Source: Candidatus Uhrbacteria bacterium (GTDB lineage: Bacteria; Patescibacteriota; Patescibacteriia; UBA9934; GWF2-40-263). From it: a stretch of 62,087 nucleotides of DNA. The stretch is taken from contig JABMNY010000019.1 in NCBI GenBank assembly GCA_013204385.1, positions 1-62,087 on the forward strand, in the 5' to 3' direction. The position numbers and the translations under genes are program-made. A model generated the notes under the pieces. It saw only the letters and a program-made list of their open reading frames with translations. It did not search any database and was not told where the DNA came from. This document shows, piece by piece, positions 4,679 through 62,087 of the stretch (its first letter is position 1; each line of letters begins with the position of its first letter).

Positions 4679-5938
4679 ATGCCACACCTCATATTCCCTC
4701 CAAGAAGTTCTGTTGTACAGATGAGGGGGGTGGGTTTTCGTGGTCAACGAATCACGGTAGCTACGCTTCCTGAGACGGCTACCGCATCGAGAATCGGTCA
4801 ATTGGTCTCTGGCGATCAGTTGGTTGTAAGTTCTTGTGGGTACTATGTTGGTCAAGTAACTCCTCTTTCGTATGTGGAGGAAGCTATCCATCACTCCGTC
4901 TTCGGTGTGATGGAACCATATTTCCGTTCCTCACACGATCCCGGAACAGATGGTTCGCGCATCCTCAAGGTTGGTGCTCACTTCCTGCTTGTTTGGGGAA
5001 GGGTACAGGGATACCCAACAGGAATTTGGTATGTGGCTCCAGAAGGGAGTCGCTTTCTTTACCCACTTGATCGGCTACTGATCTCTGTGGGGAGGCATGT
5101 TGACCGCACAATCATCGGCACATTGTTGACCGAACCAGGTCAACATTTCTATCTCACTTCGTGGGGTCTTTGGCCGGTAAGTGAGCGAGCTCGAGTGATC
5201 AGTGGTGGTGAGCGACTCTGTGTTCTCGAACGAATTCAAGGGTTGCAGTATTGCTACCAGGTTGGGGTGCTGGGAATTTCTCATTTTTTCCAGATAAACC
5301 CTCCGAAAGAACTGTCTGTTTCGAAGGCCGTTCCTTGGAACGAGAAGCTGTTCCTTTCAGTGACTCGATCAACTCAATCCTGGCTATCTGAGCCAGGACA
5401 ACCGTCCGCTGAGCCTTTTGGTGTTGACGGAACGATTCAAGAGATTTGGGTTTCTCCTAGAGGAAAAACGCTCCTGTTGTTGATTCATCCTCGTGGTACT
5501 ACGCAAGGCACACGTCGCCTTGTCATGAGTACGGGAAAGGTTCTGTATGAAGGAGTCTTTTCTGTCGATGTCCCAACCATAGCCTGGTCCAAAGATGAGT
5601 TGTCAGTGGCTGTGCAGATCAGTGAGTCCACTGACTCTGATCAAGTCGTGTCACTGCGCGTCGTTGGCTCCAACTGTGAGTGGAAGCTCCCACTAGGCAT
5701 TGAATGTCGCGAGATACTCCTCGGAGATGATGGATCGATCCTTGGATCGATCCTGCATGATGATCTTGGGTATACACCGATGTTTCGTGGATATCAGGGG
5801 ACACGGGGACTGTTTACATGGAATCTCCATCACGGTCCCGATGGTGCCATTGTCTGGTCTACGATCCAGGCTGATCAGATCTACACCTGGCTGTCTCAAG
5901 TGACGGGAGCGAATGCTCCTCGTCCTTCTCTGCACTGA
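4679..5938 (+). CDS. hypothetical protein (419 aa, beta-rich, possibly propeller-like)
   Basis: Long ORF with AAGGAGG SD, own promoter and terminator; no family recognised. Confidence 0.7.
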   Translation: MPHLIFPPRSSVVQMRGVGFRGQRITVATLPETATASRIGQLVSGDQLVVSSCGYYVGQVTPLSYVEEAIHHSVFGVMEPYFRSSHDPGTDGSRILKVGAHFLLVWGRVQGYPTGIWYVAPEGSRFLYPLDRLLISVGRHVDRTIIGTLLTEPGQHFYLTSWGLWPVSERARVISGGERLCVLERIQGLQYCYQVGVLGISHFFQINPPKELSVSKAVPWNEKLFLSVTRSTQSWLSEPGQPSAEPFGVDGTIQEIWVSPRGKTLLLLIHPRGTTQGTRRLVMSTGKVLYEGVFSVDVPTIAWSKDELSVAVQISESTDSDQVVSLRVVGSNCEWKLPLGIECREILLGDDGSILGSILHDDLGYTPMFRGYQGTRGLFTWNLHHGPDGAIVWSTIQADQIYTWLSQVTGANAPRPSLH

Positions 5939-25442: not shown

Positions 25443-26525
25443 ATGTCTTCAAAAAAAGTACTCCTTGGTATGTCTGGGGGCGTGGACTCATCTGTGTCCG
25501 CGGGTCTTTTGATTGAACAGGGGTATGAGGTGATTGGGGCATTCATGAAGAATTGGTCTGGTTCCGTGTGCGGACCTCGTTCAACTGATGCAGATGCGGT
25601 GGGAGAAGAGTTTGAGGAGTGTGGGTGGAAGGAAGAGCGTCGTGACGCCGCGCGCGTGGCAGCAAAGCTTGGGATTCCTTTTGTCACATTTGATTTTGAA
25701 AAAGAGTACAGACGGGATGTGGTTGAGAGTATGTTTCGGGAATTCGAAGCAGGACGCACCCCAAACCCAGATGTGATGTGCAATAAGTACATTAAGTTTG
25801 ATCGATTCATGAAAGAGGCGGATCGTCTTGATTGTGCGTTCGTCGCAACGGGTCATTACGCCCGCTCTAAGGGTGGCATGCTCTACACAGGCCTTGATGA
25901 CAACAAAGATCAAAGCTATTTCTTGTGGGCGATGAATCCAGAGGTTGTGAAGCGTGTGCTGTTTCCAATCGGTGAAATGTTAAAGCCTGACGTGCGCGCA
26001 AAAGCTGAACAGCTGGGACTTGATGTCGCAACCAAAAAAGACTCAACAGGAATCTGTTTTGTGGGGGAGGTGGACATGCGTACCTTTCTTCAAGAACGAC
26101 TCCCAAAAAATCCTGGAAACGTTGTGACCGTTGATGGGCAGGTGGTAGGGGAGCATGAAGGGCTAGCGTTCTATACATTCGGTCAACGCCAGGGGCTCGG
26201 GATTGGCGGAGGCACACCATACTATGTTGTAGAGAAGCGAGCTGAGACAAATGAACTTGTTGTCTCAAGTAATTATCATCCAGCCTTGTTCAAACAAACA
26301 CTCACCGCCTCACAACTCAACTGGTTTGAACAACCAAAGACAACTCCCTACAAATGTCTCGCCCGCATTCGCTACCGTCAGTCCTCCCAAGAATGCATCA
26401 TCACCTCAATCTCAGAGACTCAAATAGAAGTCACCTTCAAAGAACCCCAACGCGCCGTCACCCCAGGACAGTCGATTGTGCTGTACGATGGGGAGAAGAT
26501 GCTGGGTGGGGGAATCATCGATTAG
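25443..26525 (+). CDS. mnmA: tRNA 2-thiouridine(34) synthase
   Basis: MSGGVDSSV, GRTPNPDVMCN, ATGHYAR, KDQSYF, KDSTGICF, RAVTPGQ. Confidence 0.98.
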   Translation: MSSKKVLLGMSGGVDSSVSAGLLIEQGYEVIGAFMKNWSGSVCGPRSTDADAVGEEFEECGWKEERRDAARVAAKLGIPFVTFDFEKEYRRDVVESMFREFEAGRTPNPDVMCNKYIKFDRFMKEADRLDCAFVATGHYARSKGGMLYTGLDDNKDQSYFLWAMNPEVVKRVLFPIGEMLKPDVRAKAEQLGLDVATKKDSTGICFVGEVDMRTFLQERLPKNPGNVVTVDGQVVGEHEGLAFYTFGQRQGLGIGGGTPYYVVEKRAETNELVVSSNYHPALFKQTLTASQLNWFEQPKTTPYKCLARIRYRQSSQECIITSISETQIEVTFKEPQRAVTPGQSIVLYDGEKMLGGGIID

Positions 26526-26554
26526 AAAAAATCGACCTACAACAGGTCGATTTT
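26526..26554. terminator. terminator after mnmA
   Basis: AAAATCGACCT-ACAAC-AGGTCGATTTT. Confidence 0.8.
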
Positions 26555-26593
26555 ATGTTGTAAAGAGATGGGAGATTATTTTGTATTATGATA

Positions 26594-26653
26594 GGGTATT
26601 TACATCAGATACCCTACGTATTTATGAAGGTTATCCGAACAAAGTTCAGATAA
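26594..26653 (+). repeat. copy 1 of ~60-nt element (hairpin + 23-bp palindrome), shared with 60514..60573
   Basis: TTATCCGAAC-AAA-GTTCAGATAA at 26631-26653; ATCAGATA 27 nt upstream of palindrome start in both copies. Confidence 0.8.
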
Positions 26654-26765
26654 TTGCCGGTTAGCTGAAATGCATGGTTTCTTTTTGGGGTAATCGCCCC
26701 AGATCATAAAATGAATCTAATTTTGTTTTTTTAACGCGATACAAATCTATTACTTAACTAAACTT

Positions 26766-27455
26766 ATGGAAACACTGACCTTCGAACAAATTATCAAGAA
26801 TAATGAAGACCAAGTAAAAAAACTATTTGGCAAGCCAGATGAGGTGGTTATAGCAAGAAAAAAAATGGATGAGGACTTAAATTTTTCTCAAATCATTTGG
26901 CAATTTATAAATGATCTTAAATATTATCCCGTTTGGCACAAAAACCAAAAATCTGATGATGGAAAACCTTGGTGGAGAAGTAAGACAATAAAATTCGATC
27001 AACTAAAGATCGAAAAATTATCAAAATCATCATTAAGGTTTTTGATCGATAAAAATCTTGAGAAAATAAAAGATGACTCTGATATATTAGAATTTGTATT
27101 CAAAGTGAGAGATTTTGATAAACCATTTTATTTTTACACAACAAAAAATTCTATTCACTGGGAAGATGGTTTTGGTGTAAGTGGTTTTCCGTTTTGTTCT
27201 CAAATTCCAGTTTTTATTTACTACGACAATTGCTCTTTAGTGTACAAAGCCTATTTGAAACAAGGGCATGATTTGTCAGAAACTAACTATGAAAAATTTG
27301 TTTATTCTGATTTGAAAGCATTTACACCAGCAAATGGGTGGATAACCTCACTGTTATTTATTACTGACAGTGTTAGAAAAGAAGAAGAGGAATATGGTAA
27401 ATCTTTAATAGAAGGACTGTTTCAAAACAAAAAAACAAAATCAGATTCTTTTTAA
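26766..27455 (+). CDS. hypothetical protein (229 aa, AT-rich island)
   Basis: ORF with AT-rich codon usage; no family recognised. Confidence 0.7.
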   Translation: METLTFEQIIKNNEDQVKKLFGKPDEVVIARKKMDEDLNFSQIIWQFINDLKYYPVWHKNQKSDDGKPWWRSKTIKFDQLKIEKLSKSSLRFLIDKNLEKIKDDSDILEFVFKVRDFDKPFYFYTTKNSIHWEDGFGVSGFPFCSQIPVFIYYDNCSLVYKAYLKQGHDLSETNYEKFVYSDLKAFTPANGWITSLLFITDSVRKEEEEYGKSLIEGLFQNKKTKSDSF

Positions 27456-27570
27456 GAGAGTAATTTCTTTGAGAAATTACAGGAAAATATGTTTATTATA
27501 TAACACGGCATATCTGGTCACGGCTTGTATATAAAAACCACCACCCATATTTGCCAGCAGTTGTTTTATT

Positions 27571-27648
27571 GATAATACATTTGGAATTTATGGAGACCTA
27601 AAGGGGTTAACTGGTGACGCAATACAAGAAATTAAATGCTGGCGATAA
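27571..27648 (+). pseudogene. possible remnant of a DUF2130-like C-terminus
   Basis: DNTFGIYGDLKGLTGDAIQEIKCWR* resembles, from memory, the MYG..KGI.G tail of DUF2130 proteins; no start codon. Confidence 0.3.
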
Positions 27649-27660
27649 AGTAGAATAATT

Positions 27661-29385
27661 ATGAAAATTTCACAGATAAAAATTCACGGCATAAAGTCAT
27701 ATACTGATAGCAGTGTTGATTTAGCAAATTATACAGTTTTTGTTGGCGAGAATAACTCTGGAAAAAGCAATATTTTATTTGCTTTACTTTGGTTTTTTGG
27801 CAAGGAAAAACTTGCTTTTAAAGATGTAAATAATAGTATAAGCGATGATCCATACATTGAGGTTGAATTTGAATTACAAAAAGACGAAGAGTTTACTCAT
27901 CCGGACGAGTATTTGGTTGAGGGAAAATTTAAAGTTCGAGCAGTCTTGTCGAGAAGTAAAATTAGCGATAAGGCCTTGGCGTGCGAGTATTATGGTTATA
28001 CCGGTAATGCAGACGAAGACATAAAAGATACAAAATTGCTTGGGTGGAAAACTGTTGCCAAGCCAAGTTTTGGCGACGTGATTTATATGCCATCGGTTAG
28101 ACCGCTAAGCGAAGAATTGAAATTCACGGCAAATTCGTCATTGAATCAATTGGTGACAAAAAATATCATCGCACGAATTAAAGCGGAGGACGAAAAAAAT
28201 CAGCATTATGGTCAAGTCGTAGAATCTATTAGCGCATTATCAAATTTTATTAGTGAAGGTGAAGGCAGCGCAATTCAGAAACTAAAAGAAGACATTTCAA
28301 AAAAAATGCTTGATTATGGCAATGTACAAATTGGTTTTGATCTGGTGCCACCCGATGCCGAAGATCTTATTAAATCATGTTTCAGGCCACACACGAGCGT
28401 AATAGGAATTAGTGACAAATTGCCACTTGGATCGCAAGGTGATGGATTCCAACGCTCAATGATGTTTTCCCTTATTGCGAATCTTGCTGAATTGAATAAG
28501 GGAGAGCCAAAAACCGGAAAGAAGCTGGCGAAAAATGACTGCACTTTTTATATCATTGAAGAACCAGAACTATTTTTACACCCAAATCATCAAACATATT
28601 TTCGCAATAAACTTGAAGAAGTAGCCAATTCATCTGACGCACAAGTAATTTTGACTTCACATTCTCCATATTTCCTAAATCATGTTGAAAAATATTCCCA
28701 AATTAAAAGAGTGTACATGGATGGAATTATTTCAAAAATATCACAAGTGACAGACAAAGAAATTGACGATATTTGTGAGAGTAATGGTAATTTAATGGCT
28801 TCGGCAAAAAATGAGTGTAAAAATCCAAAACCAACAGTTCAAGAAGTCGCGGAAGAATCTGCAAAAATCGCAAAATCCGATCATCTTAGATATTTACTAT
28901 GGATTGATCCAACACGAGCAAATGCTTTTTTATCGCAAAAAGTTATTTTAGTTGAAGGCTCTACGGAAAAAGCCATGTTTTCATTCATTTTCAATAATCC
29001 CAAAGGTGCATTTTATGATGAAAGTGGGACTGCAAAAATAACCATTATAGATACTGTTGGCAAATATCATTTTTATAAGTTTGCAAACCTACTCCACAAA
29101 TTTGGAATTAAGGTTTGGTGTATATATGACGGCGATAATGATGCTTGTAAACATTCTATTTCGCATAAAATTCTTAACGAGAATATTGAAAAATTGAAAA
29201 CTGACGGCCTAATTATGGATTGCTTGAGAATTGATCCCGATCTTGAAAATAGTATTGGCTTGACCAAAGCAGAATGTGCCGATGTTGAGTTTTATGTAAG
29301 TTTGGAAGAGAACATTAATAAATGTATAGAAAGTGATGGCTATAAAAAAATAGTTGATTTTGTAAAAATTGTCATTGCCTCATAA
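27661..29385 (+). CDS. OLD-family ATP-dependent nuclease (ABC ATPase + TOPRIM)
   Basis: Walker A GENNSGKS, SQGDG signature, Walker B IIEEPELFLHP, H-loop TSHSP, TOPRIM LVEGSTE and YDGD. Confidence 0.9.
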   Translation: MKISQIKIHGIKSYTDSSVDLANYTVFVGENNSGKSNILFALLWFFGKEKLAFKDVNNSISDDPYIEVEFELQKDEEFTHPDEYLVEGKFKVRAVLSRSKISDKALACEYYGYTGNADEDIKDTKLLGWKTVAKPSFGDVIYMPSVRPLSEELKFTANSSLNQLVTKNIIARIKAEDEKNQHYGQVVESISALSNFISEGEGSAIQKLKEDISKKMLDYGNVQIGFDLVPPDAEDLIKSCFRPHTSVIGISDKLPLGSQGDGFQRSMMFSLIANLAELNKGEPKTGKKLAKNDCTFYIIEEPELFLHPNHQTYFRNKLEEVANSSDAQVILTSHSPYFLNHVEKYSQIKRVYMDGIISKISQVTDKEIDDICESNGNLMASAKNECKNPKPTVQEVAEESAKIAKSDHLRYLLWIDPTRANAFLSQKVILVEGSTEKAMFSFIFNNPKGAFYDESGTAKITIIDTVGKYHFYKFANLLHKFGIKVWCIYDGDNDACKHSISHKILNENIEKLKTDGLIMDCLRIDPDLENSIGLTKAECADVEFYVSLEENINKCIESDGYKKIVDFVKIVIAS

Positions 29386-29451
29386 AAATTGAAAAAACCG
29401 CATAGGAAGGGGTTAAGTTGGGATTCGGGATTTATGATGATATAAACATGT

Positions 29452-29556
29452 ATGGCGAGATCATTTCGTGTTCAATATCCAGGTGCTCTTTATCATGTCA
29501 CGTCTCGTGAAAATAATTGGGGTCAAGTTTTTAGTCGTCACTTTTGGATCTTTTGA
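29452..29556 (+). pseudogene. N-terminal remnant of REP-associated tyrosine transposase (RAYT/Y1)
   Basis: MARSFRVQYPGALYHVTSREN matches the MARxxRxxYPGAxYHVTxRG start of RAYT; stops after 34 codons. Confidence 0.75.
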
Positions 29557-29586
29557 GTGAGATAACTCTCAAATTGTGAACAAACA

Positions 29587-29614
29587 AAAAAATCACCCGC
29601 ATGGGTGGTTTTAT
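29587..29614. terminator. bidirectional terminator-like hairpin
   Basis: AAAATCACCC-GCAT-GGGTGGTTTT. Confidence 0.65.
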
Positions 29615-29635
29615 TTTTTATCGTTTGAACGAATG

Positions 29636-29741
29636 TCTCGTCATTGTCAGAAGCGAAGCGACGAAGTAATCCTTTCAGTATTTACATCTCAAAGATTGCT
29701 TCGTAAGGCGTTTAAAAACTCCTTTCTCGCAATGACGAGAA
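29636..29741. repeat. 106-bp palindromic MITE/REP-like element
   Basis: 11-bp terminal inverted repeat TCTCGTCATTG/CAATGACGAGA; internal CGAAGTAATC/GATTGCTTCG arms; GTCATTG..GAAGCGAAGCGACGAAG..GATTGCTTCG..CGCAATGAC pattern. Confidence 0.8.
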
Positions 29742-29753
29742 TACTGGAATAGA

Positions 29754-30371
29754 CTATTTGTCCGATAGGACCCCACTCCACTCATAAAACTCTGCCGAAT
29801 CTCCTGCCTCCAGGTTCACCTCGATCGCATCGACACTCACAGGGTCTGTTTCGTGGATGGAGATGGGGGTTGGGGTGAGGAGGCTTTCGTTTGAGGATTT
29901 GAGAGTTGTTTGGACGACACCGGTGAGGGGGATGATTTGGATGGTTTCGAGAAAGTCGTAGTTGATGAATGAGGCGGTATCTTGGTAGACGATACTGCTC
30001 GTGTAATTTGTTTCGATGGTAAGTGGGTTTTCTGCTTGAGTGGAAACGACAATTCGTCCTTTTTTCAATCGGATGACAAGTTCATCCTCGTATAACCGAT
30101 GCAATTCGATTCGAGTATTTTTTGAAAGCCAAATAGTTGTTTCAGAGGCATGAAGATCTGCTGTTTTTCCAATCTTAACTTCCAGAAATCCATCACCCGT
30201 TTCAATAATCGATCCGCGTTGAAGTGAGTTTCCAAAGCCATATCCTGCGTCCTCACCAGCTCCACCTCCAATCCGAACAACAAGTTCAGGAGGGAGCGAA
30301 AAAAACCGTTGAGCGATGACTAGTCCCAAGATAACCGTGAACAACGAGACTGTAAGAATTCGTTTGAGCAT
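29754..30371 (-). CDS. membrane-anchored FecR-like domain protein
   Basis: N-terminal TM, then LQRGSIIETGDG...IWLSKNTRIEL...IRLKKGRI beta-strand pattern. Confidence 0.55.
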   Translation of the reverse strand: MLKRILTVSLFTVILGLVIAQRFFSLPPELVVRIGGGAGEDAGYGFGNSLQRGSIIETGDGFLEVKIGKTADLHASETTIWLSKNTRIELHRLYEDELVIRLKKGRIVVSTQAENPLTIETNYTSSIVYQDTASFINYDFLETIQIIPLTGVVQTTLKSSNESLLTPTPISIHETDPVSVDAIEVNLEAGDSAEFYEWSGVLSDK

Positions 30372-60431: not shown

Positions 60432-60513
60432 AACGGATTAGGTTCAGTTTCGAAGGGAGATTTTTAATTCTCCATAACTATTCCCAATTTTGCCCCCAAC
60501 CTACCTGAGTGAT

Positions 60514-60573
60514 GGGTTCCCTTATCAGATAAACCACATCTTTGCATAGCTTATCCGAACAAAGTTTGTATAA
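60514..60573 (+). repeat. copy 2 of ~60-nt element shared with 26594..26653
   Basis: TTATCCGAAC-AAA-GTTTGTATAA at 60551-60573; ATCAGATA at 60524-60531. Confidence 0.8.
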
Positions 60574-60663
60574 AATTAAAGGTGTTTTCTCCGCTCCGCT
60601 ACGAAAACGATTTATTTATAATGGGAAAACGAATACAATACAACCAATTAACAGAAAACAGAT

Positions 60664-62087
60664 ATGACAACAAATAATCGAAAGCAACTACATGAAAGAC
60701 TCTGGGCTGCAGCAGAACAGTTACGAGCTAATGGAAGCATGAAACTCAATGAAATCTCTGAACCAATACTTGGCCTAATATTTTTGAAATTTGCTGATGT
60801 ACGATTTAAGCAAACAAAAGAGGAACTTGAAGCTAAACGAAACGAGACACAGGGACGACAAGCTCCACTTACATCTGATCACTATAAGTCAAAAGGTATT
60901 TTGTTTTTGCCTGAAATTGCATCCTATACATATCTAATGAACCTTCCTGAAAGTGCAAACATAGGTAAGGCAATAAATGATGCAATGAAAGAAATCGAAG
61001 AAAAAAACACTGACCTCGCAGGTGTATTACCACAAGATTATACTTCACTTCATAAAACCCCAGGTGAAAACAGCAAAATACTTATAACACTTCTCAAAAA
61101 CTTCAATCAAATCCCTGATGATATAGAAGGTGATGCATTTGGAGAAATTTATGAATACTTTTTGGGTGAGTTTGCTCGATCGGAGGGGGCAAAAGGAGGA
61201 GAGTTTTTCACACCTCAGTCAATCGTTAAGCTTCTCGTGGAAATTATTGAACCTTATCATGGAAAAATCCTTGATCCAGCATGTGGAAGCGGTGGAATGT
61301 TTGTACAGTCTGCAAATTTTGTCAAAGCGCACACCAAAACTGCAAAAATAATGAATGAAATTGCTATTTATGGCCAAGAAAAAGGCAGTAGCAACATCCG
61401 CACAGCAAAAATGAACCTCGCAATTCACGGATTATCTGGAAAAATTTCCGAGGTCAATTCTTTTTATACTGACGATCATAATAGTGTAGGAAGATTTGAT
61501 TTCGTACTCGCTAACCCGCCATTTAACGTGAAGGGGAAAGACAAGAATAAACAAATTGTTATTGATGCAGAAAAAATCAAAGGCGATCCGCGTTATTATC
61601 TTGGTCTACCTGTGACTGGAAAGGGTGAAATATCAAATGCTAACTACCTGTGGATGCAAATGTTTGCCAGTGCCCTAAGCGACAAAGGTCGTGCCGGATT
61701 TGTCATGGCAAATTCCGCCAGTGATGCCGGTAACAAAGAAAAGGAAATCCGCAAACAAATGGTTGATGCCGGAATGGTGGATGTAATTGTTTCGGTTGGT
61801 ACAAACATGTTCATGAACGCAACACTTTCTTGTACGCTTTGGTTTTTTGATAAGAGAAAACACGGAACAGATAGACAAAATAAAGTTCTCTTTATCAATG
61901 CTCAAGATATTTTTACACCAATTGATCGTGCACATAGCGATTGGACAGATGAGCAAATTCAAGAGATTTCATCTATTGTGCGCAGATATAGAGAGGAAGA
62001 AGGAGAAGAGCAATACGAAGATATAAAAGGCAGATGTAAGGTAGCAACACTTGAAGAAATAAAAGAAAATGACTACTCGCTCAATCC
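60664..62087 (+). CDS. hsdM: type I restriction-modification methyltransferase subunit M (partial, runs off window; not in ORF track)
   Basis: LWAAAEQLR, ILGLIFLKF, GEIYEYFLGEFA, GGEFFTP, DPACGSGGMF, NPPFN, ANYLWMQ. Confidence 0.95.
   Translation, partial: MTTNNRKQLHERLWAAAEQLRANGSMKLNEISEPILGLIFLKFADVRFKQTKEELEAKRNETQGRQAPLTSDHYKSKGILFLPEIASYTYLMNLPESANIGKAINDAMKEIEEKNTDLAGVLPQDYTSLHKTPGENSKILITLLKNFNQIPDDIEGDAFGEIYEYFLGEFARSEGAKGGEFFTPQSIVKLLVEIIEPYHGKILDPACGSGGMFVQSANFVKAHTKTAKIMNEIAIYGQEKGSSNIRTAKMNLAIHGLSGKISEVNSFYTDDHNSVGRFDFVLANPPFNVKGKDKNKQIVIDAEKIKGDPRYYLGLPVTGKGEISNANYLWMQMFASALSDKGRAGFVMANSASDAGNKEKEIRKQMVDAGMVDVIVSVGTNMFMNATLSCTLWFFDKRKHGTDRQNKVLFINAQDIFTPIDRAHSDWTDEQIQEISSIVRRYREEEGEEQYEDIKGRCKVATLEEIKENDYSLN

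Follow-up and report, generated by a model that had tools for sequence, protein, structure and literature searches.

Two copies of a conserved element ahead of defence-type genes in a Candidatus Uhrbacteria contig are probably attI/dif-like sites, active or relic, of a Xer-related recombinase

In systems with a single Xer recombinase, such as XerS/difSL, the dif site adjoins the xer gene. The integron site attI1 is composed of core sites (S1 and S2) and direct repeats (DR1 and DR2) (10.1101/2022.02.06.479319). Short, simple tyrosine recombinases of candidate phyla, related to Xer and seen as Xer substitutes, have been described as the 'Cand' subgroup, with no DNA site or cassette association assigned to them (Smyshlyaev et al. 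2021, PMC8138268). A literature search found no description of integrons or attC arrays in the candidate phyla radiation (CPR), and the mobile genetics of CPR metagenome-assembled genomes (MAGs) is almost unknown. The stretch analysed here is a contig of 62,087 nt from Candidatus Uhrbacteria bacterium (JABMNY010000019.1, assembly GCA_013204385.1; hereafter the window), the reads of which come from freshwater metagenomes. An element of about 60 nt occurs in it twice, ahead of a gene for a 229-aa ORFan followed by an OLD-family nuclease gene (copy 1) and ahead of the type I methyltransferase gene hsdM (copy 2). Both copies are probably attI/dif-like sites, whether active or relic, of a CPR Xer-related recombinase of the 'Cand' type that resembles XerA and IntI. 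They are taken for recombination sites rather than operators because the family to which they belong adjoins a Xer-type recombinase gene and heads arrays of accessory and defence genes in other CPR genomes.

The numerical features of the element, first noted in a sequence-only reading of the window, were all recomputed and confirmed. An ungapped alignment of 26594-26653 (copy 1) with 60514-60573 (copy 2) has 41/60 identities and includes the exact 16-mer TTATCCGAACAAAGTT (26631-26646 and 60551-60566), which is the sole non-tandem repeat of at least 16 nt in the window. Each copy contains a palindrome (TTATCCGAAC-AAA-GTTCAGATAA in copy 1, TTATCCGAAC-AAA-GTTTGTATAA in copy 2) and, 27 nt 5' of the palindrome start, the motif ATCAGATA (26604-26611 and 60524-60531), which in copy 1 is part of a hairpin with the stem TAGGGTAT/ATACCCTA (26592-26616). 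The distance to the first ATG is 112 nt from copy 1 and 90 nt from copy 2, and repeat and pattern scans of the window found no third copy. The similarity of the two copies has its upstream limit at about 26592; beyond 26653 copy 1 is unlike copy 2, but like its relatives in other genomes up to 26671. The two copies are the best direct 60-nt pair window-wide; since three mononucleotide shuffles gave pairs of 37-39/60, the window alone confers only modest or weak significance, and a chance 16-mer repeat is not rare in 62 kb. Conservation in other CPR genomes is, at the level of sequence, the decisive support for the element being real. Small peptide open reading frames (ORFs) spanning the copies were considered and rejected, their reading frames being different. 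The copies are also not the two ends (att repeats) of one island, because the 34 kb between them hold the housekeeping genes of Era, AlaRS, ribosomal proteins, RpoA, PriA and Fmt, and the window has no tRNA gene.

A scan of species-representative genomes with TTATCCGAACNNNGTTNNNATAA returned 45 loci, mostly chance matches, of which four are real (L048, L010, L015 and L041). L048 has an identical 23-mer together with ACATCAGACA at the matching upstream offset, and a further locus from a metagenome scan (L055) has 25 nt at 96% identity to copy 2 together with CACATCAGATAA at the matching offset, the upstream sequence ACATCAGAYA being common to these two loci at an identical offset. L010, L015 and L041 are three copies on one Candidatus Kerfeldbacteria contig (at 282, 322 and 758 kb) with about 55 nt in common, ACTGG(GG)TTATTATCCGAAC-CAA-GTTCGCATAATAACCAGTTGTACGAAA. 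The complete form of the element, which we call a head, matches between L055 and the three Kerfeldbacteria copies at 31/34 positions by BLAST (E 1.8e-6) and at 35/41 over the whole head by manual count. Neither the upstream motif nor the downstream ..CCAGTTGTR..AAAT was contained in the search patterns, and both are therefore independent evidence of homology. The segment TTATCCGAAC is identical in both window copies, L048, L055 and the three Kerfeldbacteria copies, and a motif of the ATCAGATA type recurs at the same offset in both window copies, L048 and L055. The upstream hairpin stem of copy 1 is not kept in L048 or L055, so it is the motif ATCAGATA that matters and not the hairpin. The central triplet of the palindrome is constant within a genome (AAA in both window copies, CAA in 3/3 Kerfeldbacteria copies), which fits a recombination site better than an operator spacer. 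Another copy similar to that of L055 was found in a groundwater run, and run X1 contained no further copies of either head at 80% identity or above. A phage origin was rejected: nine IMG/VR matches to the 16-mer have no flanks in common and are chance matches.

The copy of L041 has as its neighbour a divergently transcribed gene for a 273-aa tyrosine recombinase, and is 80 nt upstream of that gene. This locus and seven orthologue loci from unrelated samples (L058-L061 and L065-L067) make up a set of eight, and in 8/8 the recombinase gene is preceded, at a distance of 60-110 nt, by a homologous site directed away from the gene. The motif present in all eight is TTCGNATAA-NAAYGAG-TTRNRNGAAAT (consensus TTCG[CT]ATAA-[TA]AA[CT]GAG-TT[AG]N[AG]NGAAAT), and the core consensus of the family, written as arms, is TTCGCATAA-TAACGAG-TTGTACGAA. 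An upstream direct copy of the arm TTCGNATAA is found in L061, L066 and L067, and direct repeats of the GCAATA type in other sites. The inverted left arm (TTATMCGAAC) is found among these only in the Kerfeldbacteria copies and in L058 and L065, in the latter two as TTATACGAAC, and is missing in L059, L060, L061, L066 and L067. In L065 the site (minus strand, about 90 nt ahead of the recombinase gene) retains TTATACGAAC-AAA-GTTCGCATAA-TAACGAG with the right arm replaced by the unrelated sequence ATATATGCCAT; the switch comes right after TAACGAG, as would be expected from a crossover where the central region ends.

The recombinase is XerA-like (best NCBIfam match NF040815, 226 bits against a cutoff of 220) and falls below the cutoff for integron integrases (TIGR02249, 219 bits against 265). 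It is equally near to IntI4 of V. cholerae (PDB 2a3v) and XerA of P. abyssi (PDB 4a8e), and it lacks the IntI-specific insertion of about 40 aa, the alignment skipping residues 194-245 of IntI4 (PDB 2a3v). More than 6800 homologues are present across Patescibacteria, the closest at 60-73% identity. The L041-type recombinase belongs to the 'Cand' subgroup of Xer-related recombinases (PMC8138268), which are here linked both to a DNA site and to cassettes.

Downstream of the heads of L010, L015, L041, L055, L058, L059, L060, L061 and L065 are ORFs followed by imperfect palindromes of the form (C)CG-TACAAC | AGCGCGTATACG ... CGTAT(G)ACGCGC | AAAC | GTTAGTC-GAAAT. These attC-like sites are 57-133 nt long, against about 57-141 bp for the attC sites of integrons, and all on the strand of the head, and they fit the integron consensus, with an R'' box like RYYYAAC (GCCTAAC, GTACAAC) and an R' box like GTTRRRY (GTTAGGC, GTTAGAC, GTTAAGT). 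Their L-box stems covary: nine pairs are altered on both sides, 0/500 shuffles reach the covariation score, and pairing falls from 72% to 21-40% in slid controls. Because bulges made known sites escape a strict ungapped attC scanner, it was replaced by a covariance model, which was built on 11 sites and handles long loops poorly; in independently fetched loci the model scores 65 bits (L060), 44 bits (L065) and 31 bits (L058). It also weakly matches the 3' half of every head. Heads end in a GTTRRRY-GAAAT box, and within the Kerfeldbacteria genome the similarity of the heads stops right after this box.

The cargo of these arrays in relatives comprises AlwI-type restriction-modification (R-M) genes with Shedu SduA_C, HEPN AbiU2, NUDIX and Fic genes, as well as an Ltp lipoprotein, P-loop kinases including a zeta-like kinase, and many ORFans. 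The association with defence and accessory genes that the sequence-only reading had proposed thus extends to the relatives, through R-M with Shedu SduA_C, HEPN AbiU2, Fic and Ltp. In L055 (2788-4830) the head and its cassettes come directly after mraZ-rsmH-ftsL, where the rest of the division and cell-wall cluster would be expected. A 40-nt stretch, GTTAGTCGAAATATTTCTTTTCTTTTCTCGGGCTGTCGCC, is identical in L015 (7680-7720, Kerfeldbacteria) and L059, following an attC-like site in both (in L059 on the minus strand, after the attC-like site near 5093-5133); the two samples differ, and the identity suggests that the two genomes share a cassette or have an array terminus in common. Some R''L'' ... 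L'R' pairs of perfect complementarity, 300-520 nt apart, enclose a whole small ORF of 85-130 aa in L041 (4381-4722), L060 (about 1330-1990) and L059 (about 5040-5560), as canonical attC sites do not.

Copy 1 is a complete head (26585..26671, plus strand) with four arm-like motifs, delimited by alignment with the heads of L048, L055 and Kerfeldbacteria, and is separated from the preceding mnmA terminator hairpin (26528-26554) by about 30 nt. The upstream direct arm ATCAGATA (26604..26611, plus strand) occupies the loop and 3' side of the non-conserved hairpin at 26592-26616. Sequence comparison places the inverted arm TTATCCGAAC, the left half of the 23-bp palindrome, at 26631..26640 (plus strand). 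The putative recombination core TTCAGATAA / TTGCCGG / TTAGCTGAA (26645..26669, plus strand; 9-7-9) has arms, TTCAGATAA at 26645-26653 and inverted TTAGCTGAA at 26661-26669, that are complementary at 8/9 positions. Copy 1 is the only match to this arm-7-arm pattern in the window, and shuffles gave none; the layout of Xer/dif sites, in which two inverted arms of about 11 bp are 6-8 bp apart, is found in copy 1 and not in copy 2. GTTAGCT-GAAAT at 26660-26671 is an R'-type box of attC-like sites, and the copy 1 box GTTAGCTGAAAT is identical to L055 4990-5001, a cassette boundary. The covariance model matches 26644-26671 weakly (10 bits) as the 3' half of an attC-like site, and the 18 nt after the palindrome agree with the Kerfeldbacteria heads at 11/18 positions.

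Copy 1 heads an insertion (26526..29753, plus strand) that contains the head, the 229-aa ORFan (26766-27455, plus strand; no homologues found by homology search), the OLD-family nuclease (27661-29385, plus strand), a remnant of a Y1/RayT-like transposase, a terminator and a hairpin. The gene order around it is kept in relatives as secDF-DUF8128-trwB-like-bacA-HD-mnmA ... (minus-strand, about 200 aa)-89 aa-324 aa-era. In L062, whose MnmA is 88% identical, the homologue of the minus-strand 205-aa gene comes directly after the mnmA stop, and nothing corresponds to window positions 26525-29776; the spot is thus variable, with copy 1 marking the left end of a 3.2-kb insertion. In L064 a HAD hydrolase occupies the position downstream of mnmA instead.

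Just 3' of the OLD gene, within the same island, a short ORF at 29446-29547 (MARSFRVQYPGALYHVTSRENNWGQVF...) resembles the N-terminus of an IS200/RayT-type Y1 transposase and ends after 33 aa. Inverted repeats of 26 nt (24/26 identical) at 26707-26732 and 27429-27454 flank the gene of the 229-aa ORFan, the right one overlapping its last codons, and could represent a small unit capable of moving or inverting, or else an AT-rich chance occurrence. The stretch 27498-27555, between the ORFan and OLD genes, has matches of about 90% in short contigs of other organisms (runs X1 and X3); it may be a diverged attC-like site (ATATAAC ... GTTGTTT, with the bulged stem CGGCATAT/ATATTTGCC), and it failed the covariance model.

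Copy 2 is a partial head (60505..60573, plus strand; identified by alignment with copy 1 and by pattern scan) with three motifs, ATCAGATAA as direct arm (60524-60532), TTATCCGAAC as inverted arm (60551-60560) and the further arm GTTTGTATAA (60564-60573). It sits between a 192-aa ORFan gene on its 5' side (the AlphaFold2 model of the protein was uninformative, pLDDT 39) and hsdM on its 3' side (60664..62085, plus strand; Pfam N6_Mtase and HsdM_N, PADLOC MTase_I), which runs off the window.

The element can be read as a cluster of putative 9-11-bp arms, with an upstream direct arm, an inverted arm that depends on lineage, an arm-7-arm core and a GTTRRRY-GAAAT end. We infer that the recombinase acts on these sites, and that the copies in the window are or once were among its substrates. 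The recombinase would bind the arms and then cleave at the edges of the central region; the partner of the head in recombination would be a site, folded or duplex, on a circular cassette or island, and genes would thereby be loaded immediately downstream of the head. Copy 1 would then be an entry site with all its parts, loaded with 3.2 kb (ORFan and OLD), and copy 2 a partial or decayed site before hsdM.

Like attI of integrons, the family adjoins (in relatives) a divergently transcribed tyrosine recombinase gene, and its binding sites form an inverted pair around ...AAC-NNN-GTT... with upstream direct copies of an arm. The likeness extends to the GTTRRRY junction box of attI and attC, to co-oriented ORFs each followed by an R''/L''/L'/R' palindrome of 57-133 nt, and to cargo of the accessory and defence type. 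Unlike the integrase of integrons, the CPR recombinase is without the IntI domain of about 40 aa and below the TIGR02249 cutoff; unlike an integron, the CPR system has several heads per chromosome, mostly remote from the recombinase gene, and the window itself is without attC-like sites or a recombinase. With users of Xer/dif (integrative mobile elements exploiting Xer (IMEX) such as the CTX phage, pdif of Acinetobacter plasmids, difSL/xerS) the family has in common a core of about 25-29 bp made up of two inverted 9-11-bp arms and a 7-bp centre, a left arm nearly identical to the proteobacterial XerC arm, a place next to the gene that encodes the single, highly conserved recombinase of the Xer type, and the loading of foreign DNA alongside. 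The xerH/dif and xerS/dif sites likewise lie beside the recombinase gene, as the family site does in relatives, and the foldable hairpin partner sites of the family recall CTX attP(+). Multiple sites, integron-type attC arrays and extra direct and inverted arms set the CPR system apart from Xer/dif.

A recombination site of a cassette-capture system had been the second choice of the sequence-only reading, which proposed comparing relatives for an empty site and looking for a co-occurring regulator or tyrosine recombinase. The comparison found the 3.2-kb stretch with copy 1 at its left edge to be lacking in L062, and the search found a tyrosine recombinase in the loci of relatives. A capture site is supported by recombinase adjacency (8/8), attC-like arrays and the insertion at copy 1, and not by the window's own equipment. 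Several results weigh against attI/dif-like sites: the 62-kb window contains no tyrosine recombinase gene (tblastn) and no attC-like site (covariance model and pattern scans), and a core-pattern scan of the window found no second site that would close the copy-1 island. Neither a third arm nor an R' box is recognisable in copy 2, the central region of copy 1 (TTGCCGG) departs from the family consensus NAACSAG, and the relatives of the window's own lineage (L062 and L064) are both without a head. Runs X1-X4 contained the same strain only and no joints, with no read-level sign of recombination or of an empty site. A hidden Markov model made from the eight recombinase-adjacent sites alone leaves both window copies at noise level (E about 1). 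Membership of the window copies is therefore a two-step chain, from the window to L055 and L048 and from there to the Kerfeldbacteria heads, and, with no recombinase or attC-like site in the window, their tie to the recombinase-adjacent sites is transitive. Finally, several heads in the same orientation occur per chromosome (two in the window, with 34 kb and essential genes between them, and three in the Kerfeldbacteria contig), which would be dangerous if head-by-head recombination were efficient; such events must therefore be rare, as is attI x attI recombination in integrons.

Some of the same facts would suit an inert relic, that is, decayed ends of a mobile element or former recombination sites brought in horizontally and now without function. 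Copy 2 is without its third arm and copy 1 is off consensus in its centre, no attC-like site or recombinase is nearby, the copy-1 island contains the remnant of a Y1/RayT-type transposase and other repeat debris, and the closest relatives (L062 and L064) are headless. For the element as a whole a relic is nevertheless unlikely, as the core of 16-23 nt is identical in three genomes, the spacing of the upstream motif is exact, and copy 1 retains four arms and a core complementary at 8/9 positions, more than neutral decay would leave; for copy 2 a relic is plausible. Terminal inverted repeats of an insertion sequence (IS) or of a miniature inverted-repeat transposable element (MITE) were rejected, there being no inverted partner copy in the window.

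Somewhat less likely again is the explanation that the sequence-only reading had preferred, an operator or promoter of a defence regulon at which a dimeric transcription factor on the 23-bp palindrome, perhaps also on ATCAGATA, co-regulates the OLD and hsdM loci. A 10-3-10 palindrome suits a dimeric helix-turn-helix (HTH) protein in size, both copies lie 90-112 nt before the first gene in the same orientation, and transcription of the 229-aa and OLD genes must start after the mnmA terminator (26528-26554), that is, in or just after the element. The operators of BrxR/WYL and CapW are similarly inverted repeats upstream of defence genes, but the element, unlike these, has no adjacent regulator and a dispensable left palindrome half. 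The neighbouring ORFans are blank in Pfam, NCBIfam and PADLOC, no HTH or WYL domain was found in the neighbouring ORFs, and neither palindrome overlaps a sigma-70-like promoter. Five of the eight recombinase-adjacent sites are without the left half of the palindrome and keep the right arm and GTT box, which is unfit for a dimer, and the gene that co-occurs with the family encodes not a regulator but a tyrosine recombinase. Since recombinase sites can double as operators, regulation would also be compatible with attI/dif-like sites. A LexA operator or Cheo-box (CGAAC-N3-GTTCG) was rejected: the spacing is N3 and not N4, most copies are not near a recombinase promoter, and no supporting literature was found.

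That the element is purely the chromosomal dif of a single CPR Xer, with no role in capture and with the accessory genes as clutter of the terminus region, is improbable. The core is indeed dif-like, with a 7-nt spacer, a right arm TTGTACGAAAT to be compared with TTATGTTAAAT, and a left arm GGTTCGCATAA that agrees at 10/11 positions with what we take to be the XerC arm of E. coli dif (GGTGCGCATAA); the recombinase is also as highly conserved as a housekeeping Xer would be. A chromosome has not one but several copies, however (three on the Kerfeldbacteria contig, two within 34 kb in the window), each Kerfeldbacteria copy heads ORF arrays bounded by attC-like sites that end in GTTRRRY-GAAAT, and copy 1 is at the edge of an insertion.

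A structured RNA (5' leader, small RNA or attenuator), the last choice of the sequence-only reading, in which ATCAGATAA and GTTCAGATAA would be alternative partners of TTATCCGAAC, is highly improbable in spite of three mutually complementary segments that allow alternative helices and of folds better than those of shuffles in copy 1 and L048 (z -2.3 and -3.7), since shuffles fold as well as copy 2 and L055, RNAalifold over four homologues gives -1.9 kcal/mol with 0 compensatory pairs, Rfam has nothing near the gathering score, the elements face away from a recombinase gene and have unrelated genes after them, and the locus is in no RNA run.

Beyond the assignment of the two copies as attI/dif-like sites, we tentatively propose that CPR bacteria run an integron-like capture system by means of a Xer-type ('Cand') recombinase without the IntI domain, in which entry sites are dif-like, cassettes are bounded by attC-like sites, and several sites load defence genes (OLD, type I R-M); such a system, which we consider possible rather than probable, would represent an extant intermediate stage between Xer/dif and integrons. 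Its parts resemble known kinds (attI and attC of integrons, Xer/dif and IMEX); the combination of a Xer-type recombinase lacking the IntI domain, several entry sites on a chromosome and CPR hosts does not, and the literature search yielded no account of it. If the proposal is true, the widespread 'Cand' Xer-related recombinases can be assigned a definite DNA site and a function in capturing genes, and cassette architecture of the integron type can work without the IntI-specific domain, which bears on the origin of integrons from Xer. The head and the attC-like model would then allow pools of accessory and defence genes to be traced by sequence across thousands of CPR MAGs, and the upstream element common to two unrelated defence loci in the window would be explained.

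A separate and highly repeated element abuts copy 2: a hairpin repeat, GGTGTTTTC-TCCGCTCCGCTAC-GAAAACG, at 60581..60609 (plus strand). A near-identical unit precedes an HTH-methyltransferase gene in L059, and the repeat, with a variable stem and the conserved loop CGCTYCGCT, is also found in L048 (38-75), three times in L055 (4819-4859, 4877-4917 and 5661-5697) and at 29636-29740 of the window (minus strand). It may be an element of the repetitive extragenic palindromic (REP) type, a 5' module of cassettes or something else. In runs X1, X3 and X5 the hairpin repeat is present on dozens of contigs, in many cases with AGGGGAAAT ahead of it, and assemblies break there.

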